This document shows, piece after piece, positions 3,762 through 55,247 of a stretch of DNA of 64,000 nt; position 1 is the first letter of the stretch, and each line of letters starts with the position of its first letter. The position numbers were made by a program, and so were the translations under genes. The notes below the pieces were generated by a model. The model searched no databases. It had not been told where the DNA came from and saw only the letters and a program-made list of their open reading frames with translations. Location of the stretch: assembly GCA_043819075.1 (NCBI GenBank), contig JBDRFE010000002.1, forward strand, positions 114-64,113. The letters are read 5' to 3'. The stretch is from an archaeon (GTDB lineage Archaea; Iainarchaeota; Iainarchaeia; Iainarchaeales; 1-14-0-10-31-34).

Positions 3762-3905
3762 AAAAAGAAAAAAACAGGCAAAAAAACAAAACGAAAACTA
3801 ATTAAATAAATCAATAAATCACAAAAAAAACCGGATTATAAAACAAGCAATTAAATTAAATAAATCTCAGGCAAAAAAATAAAAGCAAAAAAAAAGAAAA
3901 AAATT

Positions 3906-4100: not shown

Positions 4101-4187
4101 TAAACTACCCCCAAAAAAATAATGTTTTTTGCAACTTGCCTTTTTTTAAAAGACAGCAGTAATATAGCGAAAAATGAATTATTAAAC

Positions 4188-5363
4188 CTAACTGTCTTTC
4201 AATCTGGACTTTAAATCGCTTAAAACATTAGCGTAATTAAGAAAGGATTCATAAGGCGAGTCATATGGATTAAAGTATTTATGAACATCTCCATCAGCAA
4301 ACCATTTAGTGCACATGTAATAAAAATGGTCTGAAATCTGCATTTTCCTCCAATCCTGAATCAGTTTAGGGTTTCTGGAAGAAATAACTTTTTCCTCCAA
4401 AGACTTGATTTCACTGAAAGCCTGTTTCTGCATTTCATTTTCAAGCCAAGCAGATAAATCCCTGTCAACATCAGCCCAAGAACTAATATAAGGCACATCA
4501 AATTCCCCTACAACAGGAAAATCCCTTATTATTTCAGATGCAGTGGCAAAACTTAAATTATCGTATTTAAGGGCTTCATTCGGCAAATGCTCCAGAAAAC
4601 TGAATATTCCGGTTGATTCCCACTGGTGTTCGCCAAAAGTTTCGTAATCCATGAACAAATTAACGCAATGTCCTTTGTTAGATGAAAGCCAAGAAGCATA
4701 TTTGTCTGCAGTCAAAGGCCATTCACCCCATTCTCTTGAAGAAAAACGAAAAGCGATGTCATCAGCCAGCTTGAAATTCCTTAACAAAACTTTCATTCTA
4801 GAGCCTTTTGCCTTGTAAACAAAATTAGGTGAACGCCAGCCAAGAACATTAGATAAGCCTTCAGCAACAATTCCATTAAAACGCATTTCAGATACAGCTG
4901 AAGCAATATCATTAGAGTACATGGCTTCAGTGTTCCTGAAAATTTTTGGCTTGACTCCAAAAACTTTCCTGAATTTTTTTGAATGCATTCTTACCTGCTT
5001 AACAAACTCTTTTTTTGAAATCAAGTAAGCTAGAGAATGGTAATAAGTTTCATCAAACAATTCAACATTACCTGAATCAACTAATTTTTGGAATGATTCA
5101 ACAACCTCGGGAAATTCTTTTTCTAATTGATCCAAAAAAACTCCAGTAATACTGAAACAAAACTTGAATTTGTCTCCGTGCTTTTTGATTAAATCAAGCA
5201 ATAAATTGTTTGTAGGAATATAACATTTCCTTGACACTCTTTCAAGATAAAATTTGTTTGCAGAATCATCAAAATAATTATTGCTTTTCCCGATGTCAAA
5301 CAAAGAATAATGCCTTAACCTTAAAGGCTGGTGAACATGAAAATAAAGGCAGACTGCAGGCAC
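4188..5363 (-). CDS. glycoside hydrolase family 57 protein (alpha-amylase, 4-alpha-glucanotransferase or branching-enzyme type)
   Basis: N-terminal LYFHVHQPLR matches the GH57 HQP region. MDYETFGEHQWE is an acidic catalytic-region-like motif. About 390 aa, sitting in a glycogen gene cluster. Confidence 0.65.
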   Translation of the reverse strand: MPAVCLYFHVHQPLRLRHYSLFDIGKSNNYFDDSANKFYLERVSRKCYIPTNNLLLDLIKKHGDKFKFCFSITGVFLDQLEKEFPEVVESFQKLVDSGNVELFDETYYHSLAYLISKKEFVKQVRMHSKKFRKVFGVKPKIFRNTEAMYSNDIASAVSEMRFNGIVAEGLSNVLGWRSPNFVYKAKGSRMKVLLRNFKLADDIAFRFSSREWGEWPLTADKYASWLSSNKGHCVNLFMDYETFGEHQWESTGIFSFLEHLPNEALKYDNLSFATASEIIRDFPVVGEFDVPYISSWADVDRDLSAWLENEMQKQAFSEIKSLEEKVISSRNPKLIQDWRKMQISDHFYYMCTKWFADGDVHKYFNPYDSPYESFLNYANVLSDLKSRLKDS

Positions 5364-5608
5364 TACTTCTTCCTCGCGAATTTATTGTATGCAGAAATAA
5401 TCTTGCTTGCAAGGTAATTACTAACACAAACAATCAAATAACAAAAACTAAAAGTAATTGCAAAAAATATCAAAAAAAAGGGGTTGAACCACCACTTCGT
5501 GCCTCCTGGCATTATTTGGAGCCAAATCGTTATGTCAAGAAAAATGGCCAGAACAACAAACAAAATTATTTTTTCTTTTGTTGGCTTTAAAAATTCCTTC
5601 CAAGTCAT
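5363..5608 (-). CDS. small membrane protein (hypothetical)
   Basis: 81 aa with two hydrophobic segments, positioned between the GH57 gene and the synthase gene on the same strand. Confidence 0.35.
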   Translation of the reverse strand: MTWKEFLKPTKEKIILFVVLAIFLDITIWLQIMPGGTKWWFNPFFLIFFAITFSFCYLIVCVSNYLASKIISAYNKFARKK

Positions 5609-5609
5609 T

Positions 5610-6836
5610 TCAGATTACTCCTTTGTAAACTTCAATGCAGTTTTCTGCAACAGAATCCCAGCTGAACCCCTGCAGTTCATGGAAAGCGTTTTTCTTTAAT
5701 TCATTTGAAAGGCAGTCATTGTTGAGTATTCCGACAATTTTGTTTGCTGTTTCAAAAGTATCCCAGAAATCAACTTTAAAGCAATGGCTGATTACTTCTC
5801 CTACACCGGATTGCTTTGAAATAATTACAGGAGTATTAGAAGCCATTGCCTCTAAGGCGGTTAAGCCAAAAGGCTCTGAAACAGAAGGCATTACAAACAA
5901 GTCTGCAACAGAATAAAATTTTTTTACGTCATCTTGAAAGCCTGAAAAAACAACTTTATCTGAAATGCCCATTGCAATAGCCTTGTTAATTAAAGAAGGC
6001 AGCATGTCTCCGTCGCCTACAACAACAAATTTTGTGTCAGGCCTGAATTTTAATACCTGAAAAGCTGTTTCAAGAAACCAGTCAGGCCCTTTCTGAATTG
6101 TAAGCCTGCCCAAAAACAACACGATTTTTTCTTTTAAGCCAAGAGAATTAGAGGCAGTAATGTACTCTGACTTGTCAATGCCATTGTATACAACAACAAT
6201 TTTTTCTGCTGGAACCCCGTATCTGTCAATTAACTGTTTTTTCATGTAATTGCTTATAGTGATTACTTTGTCAGCAGAAAAAAGGCCTTTAGCCTCTATC
6301 TCACAGATTTTCTGGTTTGGAAATAAGTTTCCTGTCCTATCAAACTCAGTTGAATGAATTGTAACAACCAAAGGCTTGTTTTTCTGTTCTTTTAAGGCAA
6401 TCCCGGCAGGAAAAGTCATCCAGTCATGGCAGTGAATTACATCACAACTCCTTGACTTAAGCTTGTTCACCACAGAAAAAGTATAGCTTTTTACCTTGGA
6501 AAAAAAATCAAATCCATAAGCATTAATGCTTTTATTGCTTGAATTCTTGGAGTCATGCATTCTTTCCTCAAAACCAAAATAAATGTTTTCAGAAGCCACA
6601 TAAGGGTGAAAATCAAATCCTTCAATCTGGATTAAATCCAAGTGAGAGTAATCGTCTGCCTGAATGACTTCAATAAAACCTGGATTGATTTTAATTCCAG
6701 TTGAAGGCATAACAAAAGTTACTTTAGCGCCTTTGGCAGACAAAGCTTTTGTAAAGCCATGCAAATAGGTGCCCAAACCCCCGGATTTAAAGGGAGGAAA
6801 CTCCCAACCAAGCATTAGCACCTTCACATAACTCAC
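5610..6836 (-). CDS. glycogen/alpha-glucan synthase, GlgA-like GT-B glycosyltransferase (GT5/GT4)
   Basis: N-terminus KVLMLGWEFPPFKSGGLGTY resembles the KVGGLAEA-type N-terminus of archaeal glycogen synthases. The C-terminal EPFGLTALEAMASNTPVI matches the E-x7-E GT-B motif. Confidence 0.6.
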   Translation of the reverse strand: MSYVKVLMLGWEFPPFKSGGLGTYLHGFTKALSAKGAKVTFVMPSTGIKINPGFIEVIQADDYSHLDLIQIEGFDFHPYVASENIYFGFEERMHDSKNSSNKSINAYGFDFFSKVKSYTFSVVNKLKSRSCDVIHCHDWMTFPAGIALKEQKNKPLVVTIHSTEFDRTGNLFPNQKICEIEAKGLFSADKVITISNYMKKQLIDRYGVPAEKIVVVYNGIDKSEYITASNSLGLKEKIVLFLGRLTIQKGPDWFLETAFQVLKFRPDTKFVVVGDGDMLPSLINKAIAMGISDKVVFSGFQDDVKKFYSVADLFVMPSVSEPFGLTALEAMASNTPVIISKQSGVGEVISHCFKVDFWDTFETANKIVGILNNDCLSNELKKNAFHELQGFSWDSVAENCIEVYKGVI

Positions 6837-7057
6837 CGCAAGTGTATGATTTTCTCATAATTGTGCAGCCGTGTGGACAAAAAAAAAGGGTTATGGGACT
6901 GCAAATAATATACTACACAAGTTAAATAAAAGGGTTTCTATTAAGGAAAAAGAACCAGAAACAAGGCACCGGAACCTGAAAACCAAACCGCCAAGGCAGG
7001 CAAATTTTTCCGGCTTTTGCACAAAAAGAATAAATAAACTTAAAGCATAATCTTTTA

Positions 7058-8014
7058 GTGAAACAAAAAATAACCTGTGTGGGTTCTGCAACAGAAGACA
7101 TTTTTGTCAAAACAGATGAATTTCATTTCAGGAAAAGCAAATCAAAGAAAGGCATTGACTTGTGCCTGAAACTTGGCAAAAAATTTGACATAGAAGAAAT
7201 CTATTTTGATTTTGGAGGCGGGGCGTTAAACACTTCAATTGGCTTCAAAAAAATGGGTTTTGACACAAACGTATTAATTTCTTTAGGCAATGACTCTACT
7301 GCAAAAAAAATTTCAAACATTCTTAAAATGGAAAAAATCGGGTTAATCCCTGTTCCCTCAGAAAAAGAAACGGGCTTTTCGATTATTTTCAGGAAACCAA
7401 AAGGAGACAGGACAATAATGACTTACAGAGGAGCCAATAATGACTGGAATGAAAAAGAAATTCCTTGGAACAGCCTGAAAAAAATGGACTGGTTTTATAT
7501 CAGTTCTTTTGGCTCAAGCATTAAACTGCTTGAAAAAATTGCTTTGTTCTGCAAAAAAAACAAAATAAAAATTGCATTCAATCCAGGGGCATTCCAGAGA
7601 AAACTTGGCCTGGAAAAGCTTAGCAGGGTTGTAAAAGAATGCAGTGCAATAATCTTGAACAAAGAAGAAATAACTGAATGGACTAAAAAAAGGAATGAAC
7701 TGGATGCAATGCGGGAATTAAATGACTTAGGGGCAAAAATTGTTGTTGCAACAAACGGAAGAAAAGGCTGTATTGCATTCAATGGAAAAAAAATTTTCAG
7801 GCAAAAAGCATTTGATGTTAAAAGAGCTGATGTAACCGGCGCAGGAGATGCTTTCTCTGCAGGGTTTATTTCAGGAATAGCAAACAAAAAAAGCATCCAA
7901 GCTGCATTAAAAATCGGGACAGCAAACGCTTGTTCTGTAATAACTAAAGTGGGAGCACACAATGGGGTGCTTTCATTTGAGAAAGCAGAAAAATTTGCAG
8001 AAAGATTTGAATAA
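7058..8014 (+). CDS. carbohydrate kinase, PfkB/ribokinase family
   Basis: DVTGAGDAFSAGFISG (the PfkB GAGD motif), about 318 aa. The ORF begins at a GTG. Confidence 0.75.
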   Translation: MKQKITCVGSATEDIFVKTDEFHFRKSKSKKGIDLCLKLGKKFDIEEIYFDFGGGALNTSIGFKKMGFDTNVLISLGNDSTAKKISNILKMEKIGLIPVPSEKETGFSIIFRKPKGDRTIMTYRGANNDWNEKEIPWNSLKKMDWFYISSFGSSIKLLEKIALFCKKNKIKIAFNPGAFQRKLGLEKLSRVVKECSAIILNKEEITEWTKKRNELDAMRELNDLGAKIVVATNGRKGCIAFNGKKIFRQKAFDVKRADVTGAGDAFSAGFISGIANKKSIQAALKIGTANACSVITKVGAHNGVLSFEKAEKFAERFE

Positions 8015-9399: not shown

Positions 9400-10014
9400 T
9401 CAGATTAAGTCAACTAAAGGCATGAAAATAAACGCGCCTTTTTTATACCCTAAAAGCACAATGTTTCCTTTGTCTGGTTCAGCTCTCCTTATTCTTCGCC
9501 AAAGCAAATTAAATTTGTCGTCAAGCTGTTGTTCTGTCACCCCGTATTTTTCTTGTATTTTTTCAAAAAACATTTTTCCTCTTTGAGTGCGGTCTTCTGG
9601 ATTGCCTGTTATTTCCTCTATTGAAGGGCAATCGGTTTTAGCCATTGCAATAAGATCTTTTCTTATTGCATAAGCTTTAGGCACAATCAAAACATACCCG
9701 CTTTCTGCCCCATACTTAGAGTTATGTTTTTTCACCATGCCCCTAATAAAAGAAACTGTTCTTCTTGCATTGGAATCTGAATCAGAAACACTTTTTTTAT
9801 GAGTTCTTTTTATCACTAACTCTGTTTTTGGATAATTTTTTGAAACATCCATCTGCCTGACTCTTCTTCCCCAAGTGTTTGTTGATTCAATTGAATTATT
9901 TCTTAAATCACTTCTGTGGTCAATGTTTTTCATTCTGCCTAAATACCTTGAAATAACAGGGGAAGCATTCTTCAATCGTTTAACCAGTTTTTTCGGCAGA
10001 GTTTTTACAGGCAT
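9400..10014 (-). CDS. hypothetical protein
   Basis: 204-aa basic ORF with no recognisable motif. Confidence 0.4.
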   Translation of the reverse strand: MPVKTLPKKLVKRLKNASPVISRYLGRMKNIDHRSDLRNNSIESTNTWGRRVRQMDVSKNYPKTELVIKRTHKKSVSDSDSNARRTVSFIRGMVKKHNSKYGAESGYVLIVPKAYAIRKDLIAMAKTDCPSIEEITGNPEDRTQRGKMFFEKIQEKYGVTEQQLDDKFNLLWRRIRRAEPDKGNIVLLGYKKGAFIFMPLVDLI

Positions 10015-10074
10015 GATAAAATTAGTGGTTCAAACTTATTTTAATTTTGCGTTTTTCGGCTGTTGTAATCTTGT

Positions 10075-12720
10075 TCACTGCTGTTTTCCTTTTTCCCTTA
10101 TTGCAGCCTGTGCTGCTGCTAATCTTGCAATCGGCACTCTGAACGGAGAACAAGAAACATAAGACAAATTCAGTGAATGGCAGAATTCAATTGAAGCAGG
10201 GTCTCCTCCGTGTTCGCCGCAGATTCCCATCTTAATTTTCTGGTTTGTTTTTCTCCCTAATTCAACTGCAATCTGCATTAACTTGCCTACTCCTAAAACA
10301 TCAACTGAAACAAAAGGCGAAACAAGAAGAATTTTTTGTTCAATGTATTTGTTCAAGAATTTTCCTTCAACATCGTCTCTTGAAAAACCAAAAGTTGTCT
10401 GGGTTAAATCATTTGTGCCAAAAGAAAAAAAATCTGCATGCAATGCAATTTCATCTGCAGTCAGGGCCGCTCTAGGCAGTTCAATCATTGTGCCAATTGA
10501 AATTCCAGAGTCAGGCGCAATTTCATTCAAAATTTTTTCAACTAATTTCCTTGAAATCTCTAATTCTTTTGCAATTCCAACTAATGGAATCATTATTTCT
10601 GGCCTTGCGTCAATGTTTTTTTTCTTCAAGTTAAGGAAGGCTTCTGCAATGGCTTTAGTCTGCATTTCAATTATTTCAGGATAAATTATTCCCAAACGAC
10701 ATCCCCTGAAGCCAAGCATTGGATTGCTTTCATGCAATTCATTTACTTTTGCAAGCAAAGCCTTTTTTTCGCTTAAATCTGAAACTAATTTAGAGTCATC
10801 CCTTGAATCAATTACGTGCTTTAAGTCAGAGATTTCCTGAATCAAGTTTTCCCTTGAAGGCAGGAACTCATGCAATGGCGGGTCAATCAGCCTGATAGTG
10901 ACAGGAAAGCCTTGCATTGCCTCTAAAATGCCTTCAAAATCTGTTCTCTGCATTTCAAGAAGCTTATCCAAAAAATGCTTTCTTTCCTTTAAAGAAGAAC
11001 TTAAAATCATTTTCTGAACAATTGGCAGCCTTTCAGGAGCAAAAAACATGTGCTCTGTCCTGCACAAGCCAATTCCTTCTGCACCTAATTCAACTGCTTT
11101 TCTTGCATCAGCCGGGGTGTCAGCATTAGCCCTTACCCCTAAAACTTTTAAGTCATTACTCCATTCAAGGAGTTCAGAAAAAAATTCATCTGGCTCTGGC
11201 GCAATTAATTTTACTTCCCCTAAAAAGAATTCTCCTGTAGCGCCGTCAATTGAAATAAAATCCCCTTCTTTTATTTTAGTGCCGTTAATATTCATTTCTT
11301 TTTTTGGGTAATCAATTTTTAGTTCCTCGCAGCCGACAATACATGGTTTTCCCATTCCTCTTGCAACAACAGCTGCATGAGATGTTTGGCCGCCTCTAGA
11401 AGTAAGAATTCCTTTTGATGCAATCATTCCGTGAATGTCATCAGGAGAAGTTTCATGCCTGACTAAAATAACATTTCCTGTTTCACTTTCTTTTTCAGCT
11501 GAATTAGCGTCAAAAAAAACTCTTCCGCTTGCAGCCCCAGGAGAAGCATTCAAGCCTTTGCCTAAAGCATTCAGTTTTTGGGTTGGGTCAATTCTTTTAT
11601 GCAATAACTGGTTTAAGTCAAAAGGATTAATTCTAAGCAAAGCTGTTTCTTTTGAAATCAGTCCTTCTTCAAATAATTCAACTGCAATCCTTACAGCAGA
11701 CTGGGCAGTCCTTTTTCCATTCCTTGTCTGCAAAAAAAACAGTTTTCCGTTCTCTATAGTGAATTCAGTGTCCTGCATGTCCTTGAAATGATTTTCTAAT
11801 TTATTGCAGACAAAAACAAATTCATTGAAGATTTCAGGCAAAATTGATTTTAATTCAGAAATTTTTTTCGGAGTGCGAATTCCTGCAACAACATCTTCTC
11901 CTTGAGCGTTCATCAAAAACTCGCCGTACAATTCTTTTACTCCATTAGAAGGGTTTCTGGTAAAACACACTCCTGTGCCAGAAGTATTTCCTAAATTGCC
12001 GAAAACCATTTCCTGAATTACAACTGCCGTGCCCCAGTCAGAAGGAATCTTGTTTAGTTTTCTGTAAGTAATTGCCCTGGGGTTATTCCAGGAATTAAAT
12101 ACTGATTTGACTGCCAAAAACAATTGTTCTTTAGGGTTTTCAGGAAAAGGATTTCCTGTCTCTGATTCAATCAAAGCCTTATAAGATTCTATTATTTTTT
12201 CCAAAGAAGCTTCAGTTAACTCAACATCAAGTTTTATTCCAGAAGCAGTTTTTTCTTTTTCTAAAATTTCTTCAAACTTGTCGTGCTCTAATCCTAACAC
12301 AACGTTTCCAAACATTTGGAGAAAACGCCTAAAAGAATCCAAGACAAATCTTTTGTTGCCTGTTTTTTCTGTTAAAGCATTTCTTGCTTTCTCGCTTAAG
12401 CCTAAATTTAATACAGTGTCCATCATGCCAGGCATTGAAGTTCTTGCACCGCTTCTGACAGAAACCAGCAAAGGGTTATCTGAATCAAATTTTTTTCCTG
12501 TTTTTTCTTCAAGAGAATTCAACGCAGAATTAACCTGTTCTTCTAATCCTTCGGGAAAATTGTTTGAATCAAAAAAATTAATGCATGCTTGGGTTGAAAT
12601 CACAAAACCTTTTGGCACAGGCAAGCCAAGCTTGGTCATTTCACATAAATTGCTTCCTTTTCCGCCTAAAAGCTCTTTCATTTCCTTTGAGCCTTCCTCA
12701 AAAAAATACACGTATTTCAA
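10075..12720 (-). CDS. ppdK: pyruvate, phosphate dikinase
   Basis: GGKGSNLCEMTKLGLPVP (ATP-grasp N-terminus), the phospho-His region GGQTSHAAVVARGMGKPCIVG, and a C-terminal PEP-utilising domain. The ORF-track N-terminal extension (MDAVLL...) is non-protein-like. The likely start is the TTG at 12720, giving MKYVYFFEEGSKEM, which matches the PPDK N-terminus. Confidence 0.9.
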   Translation of the reverse strand: MKYVYFFEEGSKEMKELLGGKGSNLCEMTKLGLPVPKGFVISTQACINFFDSNNFPEGLEEQVNSALNSLEEKTGKKFDSDNPLLVSVRSGARTSMPGMMDTVLNLGLSEKARNALTEKTGNKRFVLDSFRRFLQMFGNVVLGLEHDKFEEILEKEKTASGIKLDVELTEASLEKIIESYKALIESETGNPFPENPKEQLFLAVKSVFNSWNNPRAITYRKLNKIPSDWGTAVVIQEMVFGNLGNTSGTGVCFTRNPSNGVKELYGEFLMNAQGEDVVAGIRTPKKISELKSILPEIFNEFVFVCNKLENHFKDMQDTEFTIENGKLFFLQTRNGKRTAQSAVRIAVELFEEGLISKETALLRINPFDLNQLLHKRIDPTQKLNALGKGLNASPGAASGRVFFDANSAEKESETGNVILVRHETSPDDIHGMIASKGILTSRGGQTSHAAVVARGMGKPCIVGCEELKIDYPKKEMNINGTKIKEGDFISIDGATGEFFLGEVKLIAPEPDEFFSELLEWSNDLKVLGVRANADTPADARKAVELGAEGIGLCRTEHMFFAPERLPIVQKMILSSSLKERKHFLDKLLEMQRTDFEGILEAMQGFPVTIRLIDPPLHEFLPSRENLIQEISDLKHVIDSRDDSKLVSDLSEKKALLAKVNELHESNPMLGFRGCRLGIIYPEIIEMQTKAIAEAFLNLKKKNIDARPEIMIPLVGIAKELEISRKLVEKILNEIAPDSGISIGTMIELPRAALTADEIALHADFFSFGTNDLTQTTFGFSRDDVEGKFLNKYIEQKILLVSPFVSVDVLGVGKLMQIAVELGRKTNQKIKMGICGEHGGDPASIEFCHSLNLSYVSCSPFRVPIARLAAAQAAIREKGKQQ

Positions 12721-12818
12721 GCAAATCCCTTTGAAAGAAATGCATAAAGAAAGGGTTTTAAAACAAATGAAAAGAATTAATTTAAATTCATTAAAGAGCC
12801 AAATATTAAAGTGATTAA

Positions 12819-13964
12819 ATGAAAAAACTAAGCATTTTAGGTTCAACCGGAAGTATTGGCTCACAAACACTAGATGTAATAAAACAGCATCCAAAAGAAT
12901 TCAGGGTTTTGGGTTTAGCGGCTTACAATGAAACACAAAAAATATTAGAGCAAATAAAAGAATTCAAGCCGGAAAAAGTCTGCCTTTACGATGAAAAAGC
13001 CGCAGAAGAACTTGGAAAAAAAACTTCAATTGAAGTTGTTTCTGGAATGAAAGGATTAAAAGAAATTGCTGCAATGCAGGAAATTGAACAAACAATTGTT
13101 TCTGTTGTAGGGGCAATAGGAATTGAACCAACAATGCATGCAATAAAAAAAGGAAAAAATATTGCCTTGGCAAACAAAGAAACTTTGGTGGCAGCAGGCG
13201 AGCCAGTAATAAAAGAAGTGAAAAAAAAAGGCATTGTGCTGATGCCAATTGACTCAGAGCATTCAGCTATATTTCAGTGCTTAAATGGGGAAGAAAGAAA
13301 AAAAGTTTCAAAAGTAATTATCACCTGTTCAGGGGGGCCGTTCAGGGGAAAAAAAATTTCAGAATATTATAATGCTTCTCCTGAACAGGCTTTAGGCCAT
13401 CCGACCTGGAGTATGGGGGCAAAAATTACGATTGACTCTTCAACTTTAATGAACAAAGGATTAGAAGTGTTGGAAGCAAAATGGCTGTATGGTTTAAGCT
13501 TAGAAGAAATTGAAGTAATAATTCACCCGCAAAGCTTAATTCATTCAATGATAGAGTTTGTGGATGGAAGCATTATGGCACAAATTGGAACACATGATAT
13601 GCGGACTCCAATACAGTATGCTTTAACCTATCCAAAAAGATTATCAAATAATTTTCCTAGGCTGGATTTAATTCAGGCAAAACAAATGAGTTTTGAAAAA
13701 CCTGATTATGAAAACTTTCCATGCCTTGGCTTTGCATTCGAGGCAGGAAAAAAACAAGGAACTCTTGCAGCAGCAATGAATGCAGCAAATGAAGTGGCAG
13801 TTCATGCTTTTTTAAATAAAAAAATAAAGTATGGAAAGATTCCTGAAATAATAAAACAAGTAATGAATGAACACAAAAACAAGCTTCACCCTGAAATTGA
13901 AACAGTTTTAGAGGAAGACAAAAAAGCTAGAAAAGCAGCTGAAAAAATAATTGAAGAACTCTGA
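12819..13964 (+). CDS. dxr: 1-deoxy-D-xylulose 5-phosphate reductoisomerase
   Basis: LSILGSTGSIGSQTLDV NADPH-binding N-terminus, about 380 aa, typical DXR. Confidence 0.9.
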   Translation: MKKLSILGSTGSIGSQTLDVIKQHPKEFRVLGLAAYNETQKILEQIKEFKPEKVCLYDEKAAEELGKKTSIEVVSGMKGLKEIAAMQEIEQTIVSVVGAIGIEPTMHAIKKGKNIALANKETLVAAGEPVIKEVKKKGIVLMPIDSEHSAIFQCLNGEERKKVSKVIITCSGGPFRGKKISEYYNASPEQALGHPTWSMGAKITIDSSTLMNKGLEVLEAKWLYGLSLEEIEVIIHPQSLIHSMIEFVDGSIMAQIGTHDMRTPIQYALTYPKRLSNNFPRLDLIQAKQMSFEKPDYENFPCLGFAFEAGKKQGTLAAAMNAANEVAVHAFLNKKIKYGKIPEIIKQVMNEHKNKLHPEIETVLEEDKKARKAAEKIIEEL

Positions 13965-13970
13965 TGAAAA

Positions 13971-14408
13971 ATGAATGAAACGCCGGAAACAGAAATTTCA
14001 CAAAAATTAATTGAAGAAACAACAGAAAAATACATTAAATCATTGAATGTTTTTGGAAAAGGAGGAAAAATAGCCTTGTTTGCAGGATGGAACAAAAAAA
14101 AAGCATATAGCAATATACCAAGAGGAGAGTCAACAAAAATAGATATTATATCTGAAATCGAAAGAGAAGTAAGGGAAAAAGCAAGTATGCATGAAAAATA
14201 CAGGCTTGAAATAAGGAAAAAAATAATTGAATACATTAAAGGGAACTGGGAAACAGAAAAAAAATTCAATCAAGCAGTAAAAAGGCTTTCAAGAATTGAA
14301 GCAATCGCTAGTTCAAGGGTAATCGGAACTGCATTAAAAAAAATGAATGAAATAAGAAAAAGGGCAAGAGACAGAAAGAAAAGAAATTTAAGGAATAAAA
14401 GAGTTTAA
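13971..14408 (+). CDS. hypothetical charged protein
   Basis: 145-aa K/E-rich ORF inserted between dxr and ispD. Confidence 0.4.
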   Translation: MNETPETEISQKLIEETTEKYIKSLNVFGKGGKIALFAGWNKKKAYSNIPRGESTKIDIISEIEREVREKASMHEKYRLEIRKKIIEYIKGNWETEKKFNQAVKRLSRIEAIASSRVIGTALKKMNEIRKRARDRKKRNLRNKRV

Positions 14409-14413
14409 TTAAA

Positions 14414-15124
14414 GTGAGAAAAATGAATTTTGCGGTGATTTGTGCAGGCGGAAAAGGAATTAGAATGGGGCACGAAAAAAATAAGGTGTTCCTAAAGCTA
14501 GGGGAAAAAGAAATAATTGCATTAACAATAAAAGCGTTTGAAGAAACACCAGAAATAAACGGAATAATTGTTTCTGCAGGAAAAGAAGACATAAAAGAAA
14601 TACAAGAAATTGTTTCAAGAGAAGGCTTCAAAAAAGTTAAAGCAGTGATTGAAGGCGGAGAAAAAAGGCAGGATTCTGTTTGGAATGGAATAAAAAAACT
14701 CAAAGAGATTGCAGGAAAAAATAATATTATAGTGATTCATAACGCGGCAAACCCTTTTGTAGAAAAACAAACAATACAAAAATGCATTAAAGAAGCAGAA
14801 AAGTTTGGTGCAAGCGTTGCAGCACAAAAAGTAAAAGACACGATAAAAAGAGTTGACGAAGATTTAATGGTAAAAGAAACCCTTAACAGAAAAGAATTAT
14901 GGCAGATGCAGACCCCGCAAGCAATAATTTACCATATTGCGGTAAAGGCATTTGAAAAAGCTTTTTCAGAAAACTTTTACGGAACAGATGACGTGCAGTT
15001 AGTTGAAAGAATTCACGGAAAAATAAAAATCGTTGAATGCCCTTACACAAACATAAAAATCACAACAAAAGAAGACTACGAGACAGCAAAAAGAATGATG
15101 AAAGAAAAAACAGAAAACACATAA
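14414..15124 (+). CDS. ispD: 2-C-methyl-D-erythritol 4-phosphate cytidylyltransferase
   Basis: FAVICAGGKGIRMG nucleotide-binding N-terminus, about 236 aa. Confidence 0.85.
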   Translation: MRKMNFAVICAGGKGIRMGHEKNKVFLKLGEKEIIALTIKAFEETPEINGIIVSAGKEDIKEIQEIVSREGFKKVKAVIEGGEKRQDSVWNGIKKLKEIAGKNNIIVIHNAANPFVEKQTIQKCIKEAEKFGASVAAQKVKDTIKRVDEDLMVKETLNRKELWQMQTPQAIIYHIAVKAFEKAFSENFYGTDDVQLVERIHGKIKIVECPYTNIKITTKEDYETAKRMMKEKTENT

Positions 15125-15156
15125 GAGAACAGCAAAAAAAGACAAAAGTGAATTAA

Positions 15157-15609
15157 ATGTATAAAAGGCCTGCAAGAAAAAAATATCCCAAGAAAAAACA
15201 GGCAAGGCTGCCTATTGACACAGACGTGCTTCAGAGAATGAGAGAAGCAGAAAAACTAAGAAGACAGAAAGAACAGGCAGACAGACAAAAAGGGTTCAGA
15301 ATAACAGGGGAACCCGCAGAAGGGAGGCGTTCGCTGAAAGACTTTCCTGAACAAATTGGAATGAAAATGTTTCGAAAAGGATCCTGGGCTGCAAGAATTG
15401 AATTTAATGGAAATACCTTGTTGGTTGAGCCAACCCCGCTCAATACACCTAAAAACAAGCCAAAAATAATTGTGAGAACGCCGGAGGGAAATATGGTTGA
15501 ATGCACAGCAAAAACACAGAAAAAAATACTTAAAATTGTTGCAGAAATATGGAAGAAAACACCAAAGAGCGGAAGGCAGGGAGGGCACGTAACCGTGGGA
15601 GTTGTTTAA
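15157..15609 (+). CDS. hypothetical basic protein
   Basis: 150-aa ORF between ispD and ispF. Confidence 0.4.
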   Translation: MYKRPARKKYPKKKQARLPIDTDVLQRMREAEKLRRQKEQADRQKGFRITGEPAEGRRSLKDFPEQIGMKMFRKGSWAARIEFNGNTLLVEPTPLNTPKNKPKIIVRTPEGNMVECTAKTQKKILKIVAEIWKKTPKSGRQGGHVTVGVV

Positions 15610-15655
15610 ACAACAACAATATAAAAACCGTTTTATACATAATTAATGTGATGTT

Positions 15656-16174
15656 ATGCCGTTCAGAGTTGGATTAGGACAGGATTCCCACAGGTTTTCT
15701 CATGTTCACGAGAAAAGGCCTTTAATGTTAGGCGGGGTAAAAGTTGACGGCCATTTAGGGTTAAAAGGCAATTCTGATGCAGACGTAATACTTCACTCTT
15801 TATTTAATTCTTTAGCACAAATAATCGGCTGGAAAAGCCTTGGAAGCCATGCAGACAAATTATGCAAAGAACACGGAATAACTGATTCAAAAGAATACTT
15901 AAAAGAGCCGTTAGAAAAATTAAAAGAAATGGATTATGAAATAACAACAGTTGGAATAACAATTGAATGCAGCAAGCCAAAAATTGACCCAATATCAGAT
16001 GACATAAGAAAAAGCGTTGCAAAAATTCTTGGAATAGAAGAAGACCAAGTCGGAATAATTGCTACAACCGGAGAAAGATTAACTGCTTTTGGAAAAGGAC
16101 AAGGAATACAGGTTTTCTCTGTGATAACCGCAATACACAAGAACGTGAAAAAACTAGCTGGGAAAAAAAAGTAA
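15656..16174 (+). CDS. ispF: 2-C-methyl-D-erythritol 2,4-cyclodiphosphate synthase
   Basis: GLGQDSHRF metal-binding motif, about 170 aa. Confidence 0.85.
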   Translation: MPFRVGLGQDSHRFSHVHEKRPLMLGGVKVDGHLGLKGNSDADVILHSLFNSLAQIIGWKSLGSHADKLCKEHGITDSKEYLKEPLEKLKEMDYEITTVGITIECSKPKIDPISDDIRKSVAKILGIEEDQVGIIATTGERLTAFGKGQGIQVFSVITAIHKNVKKLAGKKK

Positions 16175-16275
16175 TTCGTCTTTTGTCGAAGTAAGGTTTT
16201 TAAATCAACGTAAGCTTTAAATAGTTTGGCGTTGAATAATTATAATTTGCAAAACAGAAAACGGGGTGTAATTTT

Positions 16276-18054
16276 TTGAGTGAAAAAAAACTGCTTGACG
16301 GAATTGAAAACCCAAAAGACTTAAAAAAACTTAAAATAGATGAACTGAAAAAACTGTCAGATGAAATACGAGAAGTTTTAATCCACACCTGCTCTATTAA
16401 TGGAGGCCACATCGGGGCAAACTTGGGTGTTGTTGAATTAAGCGTTGCATTACATTATGTTTTTAATTCCCCTGAAGACAAGTTTTTGTTTGACACCAGC
16501 CACCAGAGTTACACTCACAAAATTTTAACCGGAAGAAAAAAATACTTTCACACAATCTGCATTCCAAAAGGAATCCCAAGGTTTACTGTAAGAGGAGAAA
16601 CAGAACACGATGTCTGGAGCGCAGGCCATGCCTCAACAGCCTTAAGCGGTGCAATGGGAATGGCTGAAGCAAGAAAAAGAAACAAAAAAGAATACGATGT
16701 AATTGCAATTGTCGGCGACGGAGCATTAGGCGGAGGAATGTGCTATGAAGCACTAAACAACATTGGATACAATCAGACAACCTTATTGATTATATTGAAT
16801 GACAACAAAATGAGCATCTCACCAAATGTTGGAGCAATGTACAAGCATTTAAAAAAACTTTCAATGATTGCAGACGACCAAAAACCAAGAAGAGAAGTCG
16901 GAACAATCTTTGAAAAAATGGGAATACATTATTTTGGGCCAATAGACGGCCACAACATTGAAAAATTAGTGCAGGAATTAGAAAGATTAAAAGATCTTCC
17001 AGGGCCAAAACTGCTTCACGTCCTAACCATAAAAGGAAAAGGAATGCCTTACATGGAGAATGACAAGGCATCATGGCATGAACACCCTGCATTTGACATT
17101 GAAACAGGGGAAACAAGCAAAAAAAGCTCTACTTCAGTGGAAAAAATCGCAGTAGAAGACATGATTAAAGCAGCAGAAAAAGACGAAAAAGTTGTTGCAA
17201 TAACTGCCGCAATGCCTGCAGGAACAGGGTTATTAAAATTCGGGGAAAAATTTCCTGACAGGTTTTATGATGTGGGAATAGCAGAAGAGCATGCAGTTAC
17301 TTTTGCAGCAGGATTGGCAGCAGAAGGAGTAAAACCTTTTGTAGTAATTTACAGCCCTTTTTTGCAGAGAGCCTTTGACCAGATAGCACACGACGTTGCA
17401 TTACAAAACCTTCCTGTAAGGTTTATGGTGCCAAAAGCCTCAATAACAGGAGACGGGCCAACACAAGGAGGAATACTAGATTTCAGTTATTTGAGGATTA
17501 TTCCAAACATGATTGTAATGGCCCCAAAAGATGAAAACGAATTAGGAGACATGGTTGTAACAGCACATGAATACGATAAAGGGCCAATAAGTGTAAGGTA
17601 TCCGAAAGGAAGCCCTTTAGGAGTAAAAATAGAGAAATCAAAGGCATTAGAAATAGGCAAAGCAGAAATGATTAAAGAAGGAAAAGACATCAGCTTAATC
17701 AGCATTGGATTTATGCTAAAAGAAACAATGGAAGCCGCAGAATTATTAAAAAAAGACGGAATTGAAGCAGAAGTGATTAATGCCCGTTTTGTAAAGCCAT
17801 TAGATGAAAAAATGCTTTCAGATTCACTGAAAAAAACAGGAAAAGGAATTACAATAGAAGAAAATGTTTTAATGGGCGGGTTTGGTTCAGCTGTATTAGA
17901 AATGCTTGAAGAAAAAGGGTTAAATGAAGTTGAATTACACAGAATCGGTGCACCAGATTCATACATCAGCTATGACAGCCCTGAAAGCATTAAAAAAGAA
18001 TTCGGAATGGATGCAGAAAGCATTGCAAGAAAAGCAAAAGAAATGCTTAAATAA
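16276..18054 (+). CDS. dxs: 1-deoxy-D-xylulose-5-phosphate synthase
   Basis: GGHIGANLGVVELSVALHYVFNSPEDKFLFDTSHQSYTHKILTGR is a near-consensus DXS N-terminus. TPP-binding GDGALGGGM. Transketolase C-terminal domain. TTG start with an upstream GGGGTG. Confidence 0.9.
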   Translation: MSEKKLLDGIENPKDLKKLKIDELKKLSDEIREVLIHTCSINGGHIGANLGVVELSVALHYVFNSPEDKFLFDTSHQSYTHKILTGRKKYFHTICIPKGIPRFTVRGETEHDVWSAGHASTALSGAMGMAEARKRNKKEYDVIAIVGDGALGGGMCYEALNNIGYNQTTLLIILNDNKMSISPNVGAMYKHLKKLSMIADDQKPRREVGTIFEKMGIHYFGPIDGHNIEKLVQELERLKDLPGPKLLHVLTIKGKGMPYMENDKASWHEHPAFDIETGETSKKSSTSVEKIAVEDMIKAAEKDEKVVAITAAMPAGTGLLKFGEKFPDRFYDVGIAEEHAVTFAAGLAAEGVKPFVVIYSPFLQRAFDQIAHDVALQNLPVRFMVPKASITGDGPTQGGILDFSYLRIIPNMIVMAPKDENELGDMVVTAHEYDKGPISVRYPKGSPLGVKIEKSKALEIGKAEMIKEGKDISLISIGFMLKETMEAAELLKKDGIEAEVINARFVKPLDEKMLSDSLKKTGKGITIEENVLMGGFGSAVLEMLEEKGLNEVELHRIGAPDSYISYDSPESIKKEFGMDAESIARKAKEMLK

Positions 18055-18110: not shown

Positions 18111-18548
18111 ATGAAAAATTATTCAAAAGCAATGGTTTTGTTTTTTCTGCTGATGGCGGCAGGAACAGCAAGTGCTGCAATAACAGTTGGTGTTTCAACT
18201 GATGCAGGCACATACAATGTAGGGGATAAAATAACAGTTACAGCCACGGTGTATGACGGCTCAAGCGCACTAAACAAGGTTACAGTAACCACAGCAATAA
18301 GATTTGTTACCACAAGCGTTCGTTACTGGAACGGTTTCGGAAACACAGGAACAGACGGGGCAGTAACCTGGAATGACGCACAAGTAGGGGAAACATGGTA
18401 CAACGGAAAATACAAAGTGACTGCAAGAATTTCAATAAACGGCAAAGTATACACTACAAGCGCTGATTTTGAAGTGAACAACCCGGATTACATTTACGCG
18501 CCTAAACCAAGGCCCAGGCCAAAGCTCCCATTAAGTGTGTGCCCTTAA
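18111..18548 (+). CDS. secreted hypothetical protein with signal peptide and Pro-rich C-terminus
   Basis: N-terminal hydrophobic signal MVLFFLLMAAGTASAA, a T/V-rich body and a PKPRPRPKLP tail. Confidence 0.5.
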   Translation: MKNYSKAMVLFFLLMAAGTASAAITVGVSTDAGTYNVGDKITVTATVYDGSSALNKVTVTTAIRFVTTSVRYWNGFGNTGTDGAVTWNDAQVGETWYNGKYKVTARISINGKVYTTSADFEVNNPDYIYAPKPRPRPKLPLSVCP

Positions 18549-18581: not shown

Positions 18582-19421
18582 TTACAGAAAATCCCTTGTT
18601 TTTTTGTATTCAAGTTTTAGTTCAACACAAAAAGAAATAATTTTTTTTCTCTGCTCAGAGTTCAAGCCCTTCCAGTCAAATAAAACCAAATCAGTTTTTT
18701 CTATTGTGGTTGAAAGCATTTGCTTGAATAAAGAAAAATCTGCTTCTTCAACAAAATATTTTGAAAGAATATGAGAAACAGCTATTTCAGTTCTCTCCAT
18801 TATTTTAGAGAATTCAGGGCAGTAATGCGTGCCTCCGACACCTAAAGCGGTTTTAAAATTTGAATTAAAATTGGAAAAAGAATTAATTATTGCAGAAGAA
18901 ACAATTTTTCCTGCAACAGAATTATTCCATTCAAGTTCAGAACTGCCTATTTCAATAAAAACAGCAGGTTTTGACAAAAAAGGACCGTGATGGGTTTGCT
19001 CCATTAAAACAGGCCAGGAAAAATTCCGCGAGGTTTTTTCTTTCAGCAAATTCAAAAAAAAGTTTTTTAAAACAAGAGAAGACGTTTTAACCAGAGTTTT
19101 TTCTTTTCCGCCTAATCCAGCTGAAGAAAAATTTCCGATGGGATGGACTGAAAGAGCAGGCTGTTCTGAAGAACTTGAATGCTTTGAAGCAAAAACAAGC
19201 AAATCAGTTTTAATTTCATCCAAGTAATCAGCAAAAACCTGTTTCTGGTTAATGAAAATCAATTCAAGTTCAGTTCCATTAAAAGAACAAGAATAAACTG
19301 AATTAGAGTCAAACTGTTTTCCTGTTTCAGCAAAATTAAATTCTTTTATTAAATGGCCTGCAATATTCATTCCAGCTGAATCTGTTTTTGAAACAATTAT
19401 TGAAATTTTCTTGAACTGCAT
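18582..19421 (-). CDS. dtdA: D-aminoacyl-tRNA deacylase, archaeal type (DtdA)
   Basis: N-terminal IIVSKTDSAGMNIAGHLI, THHGP, and FIEIGSSELEWNN match the archaeal DtdA family (about 280 aa). Confidence 0.6.
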   Translation of the reverse strand: MQFKKISIIVSKTDSAGMNIAGHLIKEFNFAETGKQFDSNSVYSCSFNGTELELIFINQKQVFADYLDEIKTDLLVFASKHSSSSEQPALSVHPIGNFSSAGLGGKEKTLVKTSSLVLKNFFLNLLKEKTSRNFSWPVLMEQTHHGPFLSKPAVFIEIGSSELEWNNSVAGKIVSSAIINSFSNFNSNFKTALGVGGTHYCPEFSKIMERTEIAVSHILSKYFVEEADFSLFKQMLSTTIEKTDLVLFDWKGLNSEQRKKIISFCVELKLEYKKTRDFL

Positions 19422-19436: not shown

Positions 19437-19946
19437 TTACTTGTTTTTATAGCTAGAGGATAACTGAAAAAAAACATCCTCTAAGTTGGCTAAAGTCGTG
19501 TTAATGTTTTTTGTCACATAATGATTAAAGCTTGCCCTTAAATCATCTCTTTCAGCAAAAGGCGCTGGATTAAACAAAAAAGCCTGTTTCTTTCTAACCA
19601 ATAAATCAAAGTCCTTCATCCTGTTCAAATGATACCTGAGAAGTTTTTCAGATACAGTCCTGGAATGCTTTTTTTTGATATAATCCTGTATTGCCTGAAT
19701 AGTAGGAGAAGATTTTTTTGAAAGATTAAGGTAAAACAAGGCATCCAATACATCCAAAACAGTTGTCCTGGATTCTTTTTCAGAAATCAGGCCGAAAGCC
19801 AAGGCAAACCACCGCATCATCGAACGCTTTGTCAGCTTAATGTTTGGAGGAAAATCCATTGCCCTGATAATAAAAGTTTTTCTTACAAGAGAGCTTTCAG
19901 GGAGTTCAGGCATAAAAATCACGGAAAAAGTTTTTTTCCTTTTCAA
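19437..19946 (-). CDS. hypothetical protein, probable winged-helix DNA-binding
   Basis: 169 aa. The C-terminal half (VSEKLLRYHLNRMKDFDLLVRK) is wHTH-like. Confidence 0.4.
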   Translation of the reverse strand: MKRKKTFSVIFMPELPESSLVRKTFIIRAMDFPPNIKLTKRSMMRWFALAFGLISEKESRTTVLDVLDALFYLNLSKKSSPTIQAIQDYIKKKHSRTVSEKLLRYHLNRMKDFDLLVRKKQAFLFNPAPFAERDDLRASFNHYVTKNINTTLANLEDVFFQLSSSYKNK

Positions 19947-21310: not shown

Positions 21311-21343
21311 GAGAATGTTTAATTAATTAAAAAAAGTTTTTTT

Positions 21344-22027
21344 ATGCACCAGCTATTAAAAAAAATGTTTGCAAGAAAAAAATATCCCAGTGACCAGAGA
21401 AGGATGGGTTTAAGCCGAAGTGAAAGAAACAAACTAGCAAGATTGCTGAAAGAGGTAAGAGCAAACGACAGAAAATACAAAAACACGCGTTCTATAGAAT
21501 ACAGGACAAACAGAAGCATAAAAGAAGTCAGCGACTTGCTTGGGTACAACCTTATTGGGCTTTTAAAGGAAATGATAGAAACTCGCAGAGAAAGAACTTA
21601 CAGGGTTTTGGACATAGGTTGCGGGGAAGGAACTGCGTTAGCTGGCTTAAAAGAAGGCACTGGACCTCAAAAAAAACGAGTTGTAACTTACGGGCTTACT
21701 GCAACAAAACTAAAAAAAGAACAGAAAGGAAAAATAGACAACGTGTTTATAGGCGCTGTTGAAACCAAGCAGTTGCCTAGACAAACATTTGCTTTAGTGT
21801 ATTCTGCCCAAGCCATTTACGCAGATCAGCTTCCAAAAAAAGTGTTAGAAAAAATAGTGCATTCCCTCGTGCACGGGGGAATTTTTATTTCCCACATAAA
21901 TGCTAATTCTGGATTGAGAGAAACACTTGATGGAATGAAAAAACAAGGGAAAATAGATTATGAAATAAAAAAAGGTTTCAACGCATTGAGTGAAACTGTC
22001 GCAATAATCAAAACAAGAAACAACTGA
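21344..22027 (+). CDS. SAM-dependent methyltransferase (class I)
   Basis: VLDIGCGEGTALAGL, a glycine-rich motif I. Confidence 0.6.
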   Translation: MHQLLKKMFARKKYPSDQRRMGLSRSERNKLARLLKEVRANDRKYKNTRSIEYRTNRSIKEVSDLLGYNLIGLLKEMIETRRERTYRVLDIGCGEGTALAGLKEGTGPQKKRVVTYGLTATKLKKEQKGKIDNVFIGAVETKQLPRQTFALVYSAQAIYADQLPKKVLEKIVHSLVHGGIFISHINANSGLRETLDGMKKQGKIDYEIKKGFNALSETVAIIKTRNN

Positions 22028-22047
22028 TTTTAAAAAAGAATAAAAAA

Positions 22048-22836
22048 TCAGTCTTTTTCATTAATCATTTTCAGCAGTTCTTCGTGGACTAAGCCGTTTG
22101 AAGCAAAACAGTCAATCGGCAATGGTTTTAATGCACTTCCATCCGGGTCAGAAACTTTTCCACCCGCTTCCTCTACTAATAACGCGCCAGCACACAAATC
22201 CCAGGGCTTTAAATGGTATTCAAGATAGGAATCAATTCTTCCTGCAGCAACATAAGCTAAATCCAAGGCAGCTGAACCGCTTCTTCGAATGTCTTTTATT
22301 TTGTAAAGCATTCTTCTGACAGCGTTTAAAGTGAACTCCATTTTTTCTCCGCGGTTGTAGGAAAAACCAGTGTTCAACAAAATTTTTATGAGTTCAGAGT
22401 TTTTTGAAACAAAAATTTTTTTTCCGTTCAAAAAAGCGCCTTTTCCTTTTTCTGCAGTAAACAATTCTTTTAAAACAGGGTCAAAAATTACTCCGGCAAT
22501 AGTTTCAGCCTGTTTCTTTAATGCAATTGAAACACAGTAATGCGGGTAATCATGCGCAAAATTAACTGTTCCATCCAATGGATCAATTACCCACAAAAAA
22601 TCAGCTAATTCATATCCTCTCGGGGTTTCTTCTGCAAGAATTTCATGCGAAGGAAAAGATTTGAGAATAGTGTCTTTAATTATTTTTTCTGCTAAAAAAT
22701 CTGCTTCAGTCACAATATCCCTTGGGCCTTTATAGCTTACCTTGGATAAATCAGAGAACTCTCCTTTATGGGAAAGAATTGCTTTTCCTGCTTTTTTTGC
22801 TGCAAGAATTGCTGTCTCCAAAAACAATGACTGCAT
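22048..22836 (-). CDS. inositol monophosphatase / fructose-1,6-bisphosphatase family protein
   Basis: WVIDPLDGTVNFAHDYPHYCVSIAL matches the IMPase DPxDGT and WxIDPxDGT motifs. Probable start at the internal M (MQSLFLETAILAAKKAG). Confidence 0.8.
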   Translation of the reverse strand: MQSLFLETAILAAKKAGKAILSHKGEFSDLSKVSYKGPRDIVTEADFLAEKIIKDTILKSFPSHEILAEETPRGYELADFLWVIDPLDGTVNFAHDYPHYCVSIALKKQAETIAGVIFDPVLKELFTAEKGKGAFLNGKKIFVSKNSELIKILLNTGFSYNRGEKMEFTLNAVRRMLYKIKDIRRSGSAALDLAYVAAGRIDSYLEYHLKPWDLCAGALLVEEAGGKVSDPDGSALKPLPIDCFASNGLVHEELLKMINEKD

Positions 22837-55237: not shown

Positions 55238-55247
55238 TTATTTCACT

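Follow-up and report, generated by a model that had tools for sequence, protein, structure and literature searches.

A 64-kb stretch of archaeal DNA (contig JBDRFE010000002.1 of assembly GCA_043819075.1, hereafter the window) encodes four enzymes of the bacterial-type methylerythritol phosphate (MEP) pathway of isoprenoid biosynthesis: Dxr, IspD, IspF, and Dxs. Judged from their sequences, the four genes are genuine MEP pathway genes that are under purifying selection and show no decay, and the module that they form appears to be what remains of a cluster of 7 genes, which sister lineages of the window's family possess in complete form. The presence of bacterial-type MEP genes in an archaeal genome is best explained by horizontal acquisition, which in this case would be an old event. 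We lean, though not strongly, toward the other three genes of the cluster, ispE, ispG, and ispH, being encoded elsewhere in the genome, possibly with an IspH of a different type, in which case the pathway would still yield isopentenyl diphosphate (IPP) and dimethylallyl diphosphate (DMAPP).

Results

An operon-like array predicted to encode Dxr, IspD, IspF, and Dxs

From dxr to dxs, the window contains 6 co-directional open reading frames (ORFs) on the + strand, separated by intergenic gaps of 5–101 bp in an operon-like arrangement (Table 1). A sequence-only reading of this DNA had described dxr, ispD, ispF, and dxs as co-directional within 5 kb, and we recovered the 4 ORFs on that strand at exactly those coordinates with scores above the NCBIfam equivalog cut-offs: 487.8 bits versus 315.7 for Dxr (TIGR00243), 202.5 versus 181.3 for IspD (TIGR00453), 149.3 versus 116.45 for IspF (TIGR00151), and 725.2 versus 465.95 for Dxs (TIGR00204). 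The 4 proteins contain the matching Pfam domains, and full-length alignments to solved enzymes show that their catalytic motifs are intact. Dxr was aligned to 6mh4 and keeps the GSTGSIG, DSEHSAIFQ, HPxWSMG, and MNKG-x-E motifs, IspD was aligned to the Bacillus subtilis enzyme (5ddt, E 1.5e-45), and the Zn-ligand motifs G-x-D-x-H and SD-x-DV-x-x-H of IspF align with those of 3re3. The window Dxs is 100% identical to MFH1663226.1, which is encoded on a 146,652-bp contig of an NCBI metagenome-assembled genome (MAG) labelled "archaeon", and the NCBI annotation of the MEP proteins in this group is already correct.

Within the family of the window (1-14-0-10-31-34, see below), dN/dS was about 0.13 for dxs and dxr, 0.17 for ispF, and 0.24 for ispD; the flanking genes gave 0.19 (PPDK, encoding pyruvate phosphate dikinase) and 0.30 (dtdA). 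IspF is the most conserved of the 4 enzymes, with 80–91% identity within the family. Dxs would be expected to convert pyruvate and glyceraldehyde-3-phosphate to 1-deoxy-D-xylulose 5-phosphate (DXP), Dxr would convert DXP to MEP, and IspD would convert MEP to 4-diphosphocytidyl-2-C-methyl-D-erythritol (CDP-ME). Once IspE has phosphorylated CDP-ME, IspF would perform the cyclization to 2-C-methyl-D-erythritol 2,4-cyclodiphosphate (MEcPP).

The module lies on an intact archaeal contig

The frame in which the module is embedded, PPDK(-), dxr..ispD..ispF-dxs, dtdA(-)-orf169(-), recurs in the independent assemblies L002, L003, L004, L005, and L008 (a contig scan with a single protein as query yielded only 4 relevant loci). 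Protein identity in this frame is 69–91% in L002–L005, and the L008 DNA is 99.3% identical to that of the window at the nucleotide level. PPDK orthologs (74–81% identical) occupy the same position in L002, L004, L005, and L008, and dtdA orthologs (69% identical) do so in L002, L003, L004, and L008. The GC content remains between 0.33 and 0.38 across the window, without a step at the MEP borders. An archaeal signal recognition particle (SRP) RNA is present (Table 1), and the archaeal information-processing genes named in the sequence-only reading, which encode TFE (TFIIE_alpha), aTrm56, DtdA, and class-I LysRS, were all recovered. The window also codes for KaiC-type ATPases and for an archaeal-style pilus/archaellum-like ATPase accompanied by membrane-protein genes. 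Archaeal-type tRNA introns, which the same reading had listed among the archaeal traits, were not found: ARAGORN with and without its intron mode, together with Rfam, identified in the window only 3 tRNAs, all of them intron-less.

Because the MEP genes are of bacterial type and the window additionally contains a bacterial-looking long RelA/SpoT homolog and PPDK, we considered that the MEP segment could be an assembly or binning artefact, namely a bacterial fragment on an archaeal contig, or that the contig itself could be bacterial. The chance of this is negligible, and for practical purposes both versions are refuted. The same junctions are found on both sides of the segment in 6 independent assemblies from different studies, the closed 1.05 Mb Iainarchaeum genome CP064981.1 (L001) holds the complete version of the cluster, and the labelled sequences of the Dxs clade described below are archaeal only. 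The uniform GC content, the SRP RNA, and the archaeal information-processing genes argue in the same direction, and the concern of the sequence-only reading that the contig might prove chimeric or bacterial is thereby answered.

Close relatives have been labelled differently at NCBI, as Iainarchaeum, Diapherotrites, Micrarchaeota, or archaeon. In a published table, the syntenic relative L003 (Meg19_1012_Bin_505) is classified by GTDB as p__Iainarchaeota; o__Iainarchaeales; f__1-14-0-10-31-34, and CG10_big_fil_rev_8_21_14_0_10_31_34, which was taken as the organism of the Dxs sequence P0004, is placed in the same family. Because L003 and the presumed P0004 organism carry this taxonomy, we assign the window to the Iainarchaeota (formerly Diapherotrites), order Iainarchaeales, family 1-14-0-10-31-34, on the basis of synteny and identity to these relatives rather than of a marker tree.

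The module appears to be the remnant of a seven-gene cluster

Complete clusters were found in 2 sister lineages within the Iainarchaeales. On a contig of the Logan assembly of ERR15087765 (L007; GC 0.34, Dxs 70% identical to that of the window), the gene order is ispE-ispH(-) followed by dxr-ispD-ispF-dxs, a 65-aa product, and ispG. The same 7 genes are present in CP064981.1 (L001; GC 0.52, Dxs 60% identical), together with genes for a geranylgeranyl reductase, a methyltransferase, and a NUDIX protein and with small ORFs. The IspE, IspH, and IspG proteins of both loci exceed the equivalog cut-offs. Both clusters share with the window the core order dxr-ispD-ispF-dxs, the Dxs clade with its active-site signature, and the orf169 anchor. 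They differ from it in having ispE-ispH immediately upstream and ispG immediately downstream, 3 genes that are gone from the locus in the window's family, and L007 also differs in having no interleaved ORFs.

Orthologs of orf169 were identified in both lineages: that of L007 (13272–13745 (-), 58% identity) directly follows ispG, that of L001 (17335–17811 (-), 53% identity) is located downstream of the cluster, and in all family loci orf169 is located beside dtdA. Because orf169 orthologs flank the cluster in the window, L007, and L001, the cluster occupies the same chromosomal anchor in all 3 lineages. The downstream end of the locus thus appears to have changed in the family from dxs-ispG-orf169(-) to dxs-(orf145)-dtdA(-)-orf169(-), with ispG removed in situ. 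The slot between dxs and dtdA, which corresponds to the ispG position of L007 and L001, is filled in the window by orf145; this ORF is also present in L008, whereas in L002 and L003 dxs abuts dtdA and leaves no space for it. At the upstream end, PPDK occupies the position of ispE-ispH in L007 and the loci have no upstream flanking genes in common; the ispE-ispH pair would have been replaced by other genes in family 1-14-0-10-31-34. The linkage of orf169 to the cluster is kept across Iainarchaeales whose Dxs proteins are only 60–70% identical; this protein could be a regulator, or the linkage could simply be conserved synteny.

The complete clusters are themselves not uniform. Between L001 and L007, identity is 62% for Dxs, 52% for Dxr, and 62% for IspG, but only 29% for IspH (L001 2363–3376 (-), L007 6534–7475 (-)). 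Because the 2 IspH proteins are this divergent while Dxs, Dxr, and IspG are clearly orthologous, the L001 and L007 clusters appear to be mosaics in which at least one IspH replacement occurred. The best archaeal-labelled relatives of the L007 IspH enzyme are from Micrarchaeota.

Dxs phylogeny points to an ancient acquisition

A neighbor-joining (NJ) tree was constructed from the 118 best homologs of Dxs that are of full length. The tree contains an exclusive Dxs clade of 36 members (P0001–P0036), of which those with labels are Diapherotrites, Iainarchaeum, archaeon, and one Micrarchaeota, and within which identity is at least 58%. The nearest labelled bacterial Dxs proteins (from Patescibacteria, Schekmanbacteria, and Desulfobacteria) and the labelled Woesearchaeota Dxs are 46–50% identical and are located elsewhere in the tree. 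Since the clade is exclusive and the composition of the genes is fully ameliorated, the transfer was probably ancient and has been inherited: the cluster would have entered the ancestor of the Iainarchaeal clade from bacteria long ago and would have been passed on vertically since, its composition becoming host-like while purifying selection kept the genes. The sequence-only reading had proposed the horizontal acquisition of a partial module. Of this proposal, the horizontal origin of the bacterial-type genes stands, but the event is likely to be ancient within the Iainarchaeales rather than recent, and the partial module seems to be what is left of 7 genes. The phylogenetic analysis that it had called for, performed here for Dxs, yielded the exclusive Iainarchaeal clade, but the resolution of an NJ tree does not allow a donor to be named. 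Judged from Dxs, the Iainarchaeal acquisition would be independent of the published Woesearchaeota case.

A clade-specific Dxs subtype with four altered active-site residues

The window Dxs aligns over its full length to the Escherichia coli DXP synthase (DXPS, 2o1s) and has the same three-domain architecture and thiamin diphosphate (ThDP) motif. It differs from the E. coli enzyme, as does the entire clade, at 4 active-site positions: the substitutions R99C, R420K, H431Q, and R478K (E. coli numbering) are found in 36/36 clade members and 0/82 other Dxs proteins, and a one-residue deletion before D427 (residue 426) shows the same distribution (36/36 versus 0/82). As a consequence, the clade motif P-K-x-x-x-T-x-[gap]-D-G-x-T-Q-G-G replaces D-R-x-G-x-V-G-x-D-G-x-T-H-x-G, and TIC and YPKG are found in place of TIR and YPRG. 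Mapped on 2o1s, the equivalent residues of the window Dxs are C95, K387, Q397, and K444, and in the same alignment H49, E370, Y392, R398, D427, and the ThDP motif GDG...NDN are kept.

These positions have been characterized in the E. coli enzyme, in which R420 and R478 bind D-glyceraldehyde 3-phosphate (D-GAP) and the R420A variant turns over extremely inefficiently (PMC11908136, PMC9068908). A network formed by R99, D427, and H431 stabilizes the lactyl-ThDP (LThDP) intermediate, although catalysis does not strictly require H431 (PMC11908136, PMC9068908). Because L001 and L007 encode the same Dxs subtype in their complete clusters, beside a canonical Dxr, we infer that the clade enzyme still makes DXP.

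The interleaved ORFs are lineage-specific and probably dispensable

The array is interrupted by orfA, in the dxr-ispD slot, and orfB, in the ispD-ispF slot. Their net charges of +18 and +22, respectively, and the lack of any match in Pfam, NCBIfam, or PHROGs agree with the earlier description of 2 unassigned basic proteins; in the PHROGs search, orf145 was also without a match. The sequence-only reading had further raised a non-orthologous replacement of IspE by one of them. This idea, which can be extended to other missing MEP enzymes, draws on their location inside an operon-like array with gaps of 5–46 bp and on the absence of IspE from the window. We regard such a replacement as extremely improbable, because the presence and absence of the ORFs among related loci contradict it and neither protein has a kinase feature. 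In L008, window positions 13959–14375 are replaced by 35 bp and orfA is thereby cleanly deleted from DNA that is otherwise nearly identical. The dxr-ispD slot is also empty in L004 and in L007, which has a complete and compact cluster with neither ORF, and contains a 107-aa ORF in L001. Positional orthologs of orfA, of 145–149 aa, occupy the slot in L002 and L005, where they are only 27–33% identical and recognizable by jackhmmer; orfA evolves approximately 5 times faster than the MEP enzymes.

The distribution of orfB is as irregular. The L008 copy is identical, but the ispD-ispF slot has no orfB in L002, L003, L005, and L007; an unrelated 283-aa ORF takes its place in L004, and a NUDIX gene and a 171-aa ORF do so in L001. 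When 1.84 billion cluster representatives were searched exhaustively with HMMER, only 7 relatives of orfB were returned, mostly of 124–147 aa, in which a conserved core follows a basic tail and nucleotide-binding or kinase motifs are lacking; the single relative in L002 is located outside the MEP cluster. Both orfA and orfB are strongly basic proteins of 145–150 aa without P-loop or GHMP motifs. Single-sequence AlphaFold models, both of low confidence, were all-helical for orfA (predicted local distance difference test (pLDDT) 54.9) and consisted of a helix, 3 short strands, and a helix for orfB (pLDDT 54.5). We regard orfA and orfB as dispensable, lineage-specific small basic proteins of fast turnover, rather than pathway enzymes, that occupy variable intergenic slots, the third of which holds orf145, and that are probably co-transcribed with the MEP genes.

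The whereabouts of ispE, ispG, and ispH

Neither ispE, ispG, and ispH nor mevalonate-pathway (MVA) genes were found among the window ORFs of at least 200 aa, all of which were profile-scanned, and tblastn of the window with archaeal IspE, IspG, and IspH probes gave no match; the sequence-only reading, which had not seen the 3 MEP genes in the window, was correct on this point. Outside the window, homologs were searched with L001 IspG and L007 IspH as queries, so IspE and the L001-type IspH were not among the queries, and the search covered contigs and MAG accessions rather than whole genomes. No L007-type IspH (at least 57% identity) was present on more than 1 Mb of family contigs (146,652; 364,048; 111,364; 103,231; 83,394; 58,218; and 43,273 bp). 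On the same contigs, no IspG was found among the top 120 matches to L001 IspG, a list that reaches approximately 60% identity and does not include the 59%-identical archaeal IspG of L010. Archaeal-labelled IspH or IspG matches were also absent from the accession blocks of 5 NCBI-annotated family MAGs. According to our calibration, a vertically inherited IspH would be expected to be approximately 72–76% identical to that of L007 and, hence, to appear near the top of the list. Relatives that do not belong to the family (P0011, P0013, P0014, P0015, P0016, and others) did have IspG/IspH homologs on their dxs contigs.

Several ispH-ispG pairs were examined as candidates for the family's missing genes and rejected because they belong to other organisms: P0352 (L009, ispH-ispG at 10001–12194, GC 0.59), P0354 (L010, 308–2530, GC 0.51), P0244 (L011, 5352–7590, GC 0.51), P0245 (L013, 9560–11774, GC 0.42, with its own dxr that is only 41% identical to that of the window), and P0257 (L015, 2406–4635, which has its own dxr). 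The amino acid composition of candidates was tried as a proxy for a low-GC origin and was too noisy. In these 5 DPANN-like or unlabelled loci, ispH and ispG are adjacent and co-directional, often near YjbQ genes and sometimes near dxr, and MEP gene order is highly variable among the organisms concerned.

The negative searches, the rejection of these candidates, the calibration of the expected IspH identity, and the apparent in situ removal of ispG weigh against a pathway that is complete in the genome, and the non-canonical residues at 4 characterized active-site positions make the exact activity of Dxs presumptive. We give a lower but substantial weight to the possibility that the pathway is truly truncated and that the family has lost ispG, ispH, and perhaps ispE, obtaining IPP through the mevalonate route or lipids from a host. 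Dxs, Dxr, IspD, and IspF could then supply DXP for thiamine or pyridoxal synthesis, or MEP, CDP-ME, or MEcPP could be an end product, for instance a solute or a metabolite used under stress, or could be traded with a partner as an intermediate. The excision of ispG between dxs and the orf169 anchor, the absence of ispE-ispH upstream in all family loci, and the failure to find an L007-type IspH in the 5 annotated MAGs or on more than 1 Mb of family contigs are consistent with this. MVA genes have been reported for Diapherotrites/Iainarchaeota (PMC6107057; PMC10936187, the latter for a single Iainarchaeota MAG), mevalonate-using bacteria with incomplete MEP sets exist (PMC10663253), and the purifying selection on the 4 genes would imply that a truncated module has a function. 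A more far-reaching version of this scenario strikes us as rather unlikely: the whole family would have discarded ispE, ispG, and ispH, and the 4 enzymes would serve a role other than IPP synthesis, producing a methylerythritol-derived end product, such as MEP, CDP-ME, or a cyclic phosphate, or a host-exchanged intermediate, with a Dxs subtype remodelled in its D-GAP site and its intermediate-gating network.

Other observations argue against truncation. Without IspE, IspF has no substrate and would be useless, but no other enzyme of the 4 is as well conserved, and a supply of DXP accounts for dxs only. In a survey of 4,400 bacterial species, none of the MEP users had dispensed with IspG or IspH (PMC10663253). 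The negative results rest on contigs and accession blocks and concern only L007-type IspH and IspG of at least approximately 60% identity, and an IspH of a different type is conceivable because its replacement has a precedent in the clade (the L001 and L007 enzymes). For these reasons, we slightly favor the remaining genes being encoded elsewhere in the genome.

Other features of the window

The coordinates of the module, its neighbors, and other features of the window are listed in Table 1. The start of PPDK was set from the 883-aa gene call in L008. A segment of the window (21324–22051) that contains a methyltransferase gene is missing in L008 and represents a second strain-level indel besides that of orfA. 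The long RelA/SpoT homolog is of a bacterial type that is unusual for archaea. Adenylosuccinate lyase is split into 2 overlapping ORFs; the cause may be a frameshift or an assembly error, or the gene may be a pseudogene. The genes for tRNA-Lys and tRNA-Leu are closely followed by an ORF of 311 aa that weakly matches LAGLIDADG_3 (region 37892–39048). The carbohydrate-storage cluster recalls the GH57/glycolysis genes described in those Woesearchaeota that have richer biosynthetic capacities.

Table 1. Features of the 64-kb window, with their positions, strands, and family matches or remarks.
Feature	Coordinates	Strand	Match or remark
dxr (IspC), DXP reductoisomerase	12819–13964	+	TIGR00243, three Dxr Pfam domains
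orfA, 145-aa basic protein, predicted all-helical, dxr-ispD slot	13971–14408	+	no family match
ispD, MEP cytidylyltransferase, not fused to ispF	14414–15124	+	TIGR00453, Pfam IspD
orfB, 150-aa basic protein, ispD-ispF slot, tiny orphan family	15157–15609	+	no family match
ispF, MEcPP synthase	15656–16174	+	TIGR00151, Pfam YgbB
dxs, DXP synthase, clade-specific subtype	16276–18054	+	TIGR00204
PPDK, pyruvate phosphate dikinase	10075–12726	-	Pfam PPDK_N, PEP-utilizers, PEP-utilizers_C
orf145, small ORF, hydrophobic N-terminus, Pro-rich C-terminus	18111–18548	+	no family match above threshold
dtdA, archaeal-type D-aminoacyl-tRNA deacylase	18582–19421	-	Pfam tRNA_deacylase, 6.3e-59
orf169, conserved hypothetical protein	19437–19946	-	no family match; synteny anchor downstream of cluster
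Carbohydrate-storage cluster	865–8014		GalT-like HIT protein, eukaryote-type glycogen synthase (PF05693), GH57, GT4/GT5 starch-synthase-like enzyme, PfkB kinase
S-adenosylmethionine (SAM)-methyltransferase, 227 aa	21344–22027	+	missing in L008
XerC/D-type integrase	31851–32711	+	
311-aa ORF	38113–39048	+	weak LAGLIDADG_3 match
Adenylosuccinate lyase, N-terminal part	41275–42036	-	Lyase_1 N-terminal
Adenylosuccinate lyase, C-terminal part	42014–42610	-	Lyase_1 C-terminal and ASL_C
Long RelA/SpoT homolog	50107–51927	-	HD_4, RelA_SpoT, TGS, ACT
Type IV pilus/archaellum-like cluster	53349–62436	-	T2SSE ATPase, two T2SSF proteins, five ORFs without family match, KaiC/ArlH-like ATPase
Archaeal SRP RNA	63103–63379	-	Rfam RF01857, 123.8 bits

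Discussion

The transfer of MEP genes to related DPANN archaea is already documented, and for this reason our finding is only moderately new. Hoshino and Gaucher (2018, PMC6107057) reported MEP genes in "a few DPANN" archaea, and 52 Woesearchaeota forming a monophyletic clade have co-located MEP genes (Castelle et al. 2021, PMC8204110, citing Castelle and Banfield 2018). MEP genes, mostly with a fused ispDF, also occur in subgroups F and J of the Woesearchaeota (Huang et al. 2021, PMC8421398), and orders of Micrarchaeota have complete MEP pathways, in a study that does not mention Iainarchaeota as carriers (Natl Sci Rev 2025, PMC12892359). Our literature search found no paper that names Iainarchaeota or Diapherotrites as MEP carriers. 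The sequence-only reading had presented the module as surprising on the grounds that archaea use the mevalonate pathway; bacterial-type genes in an archaeon are indeed what we find, but that framing had overlooked the DPANN reports (PMC8204110, PMC8421398, PMC6107057, PMC12892359).

The window resembles the Woesearchaeota clusters (PMC8204110, PMC8421398) in that bacterial MEP genes are co-located in a DPANN archaeon and are attributed to transfer from bacteria. It differs from them in phylum and in its Dxs, which is 48% identical to labelled Woesearchaeota Dxs and falls in a separate NJ clade. In most genomes of Woesearchaeota subgroup J, ispDF is fused, whereas ispD and ispF are separate in the window with orfB between them, and the scan of ORFs from 200 aa upward revealed neither a UbiA prenyltransferase nor a G3P dehydrogenase near the window cluster. 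With the Micrarchaeota (PMC12892359), a DPANN sister phylum, the window shares a horizontally acquired MEP pathway; the pathways are complete there, and only 4 genes are clustered in the window. What sets the window apart from the known cases is thus its lineage, the lack of fusion between ispD and ispF, its distinct Dxs clade, and a cluster that is broken up.

Listeria innocua is not known to carry gcpE and lytB. The incomplete MEP sets of mevalonate-using bacteria (PMC10663253) are similar to the window in that early MEP genes are kept without the last 2 Fe-S enzymes. Unlike these sets, the window locus also lacks IspE, and its retained genes are under clear purifying selection.

With our results, the documented range of the bacterial MEP pathway among DPANN archaea comes to include the Iainarchaeota, in which it would form a coherent and vertically inherited clade distinct from that of the Woesearchaeota. 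This bears on how frequently the pathways of the "lipid divide" have crossed between domains and on the isoprenoid autonomy of archaea with small genomes. Because the Dxs of this clade is naturally altered at 4 residues that are considered key to D-GAP binding and the gating of intermediates, it would lend itself to mechanistic studies and to work on inhibitors. If the absence of ispE, ispG, and ispH proved to be true genome-wide, the family would possess an unusual, selectively maintained truncated MEP module.

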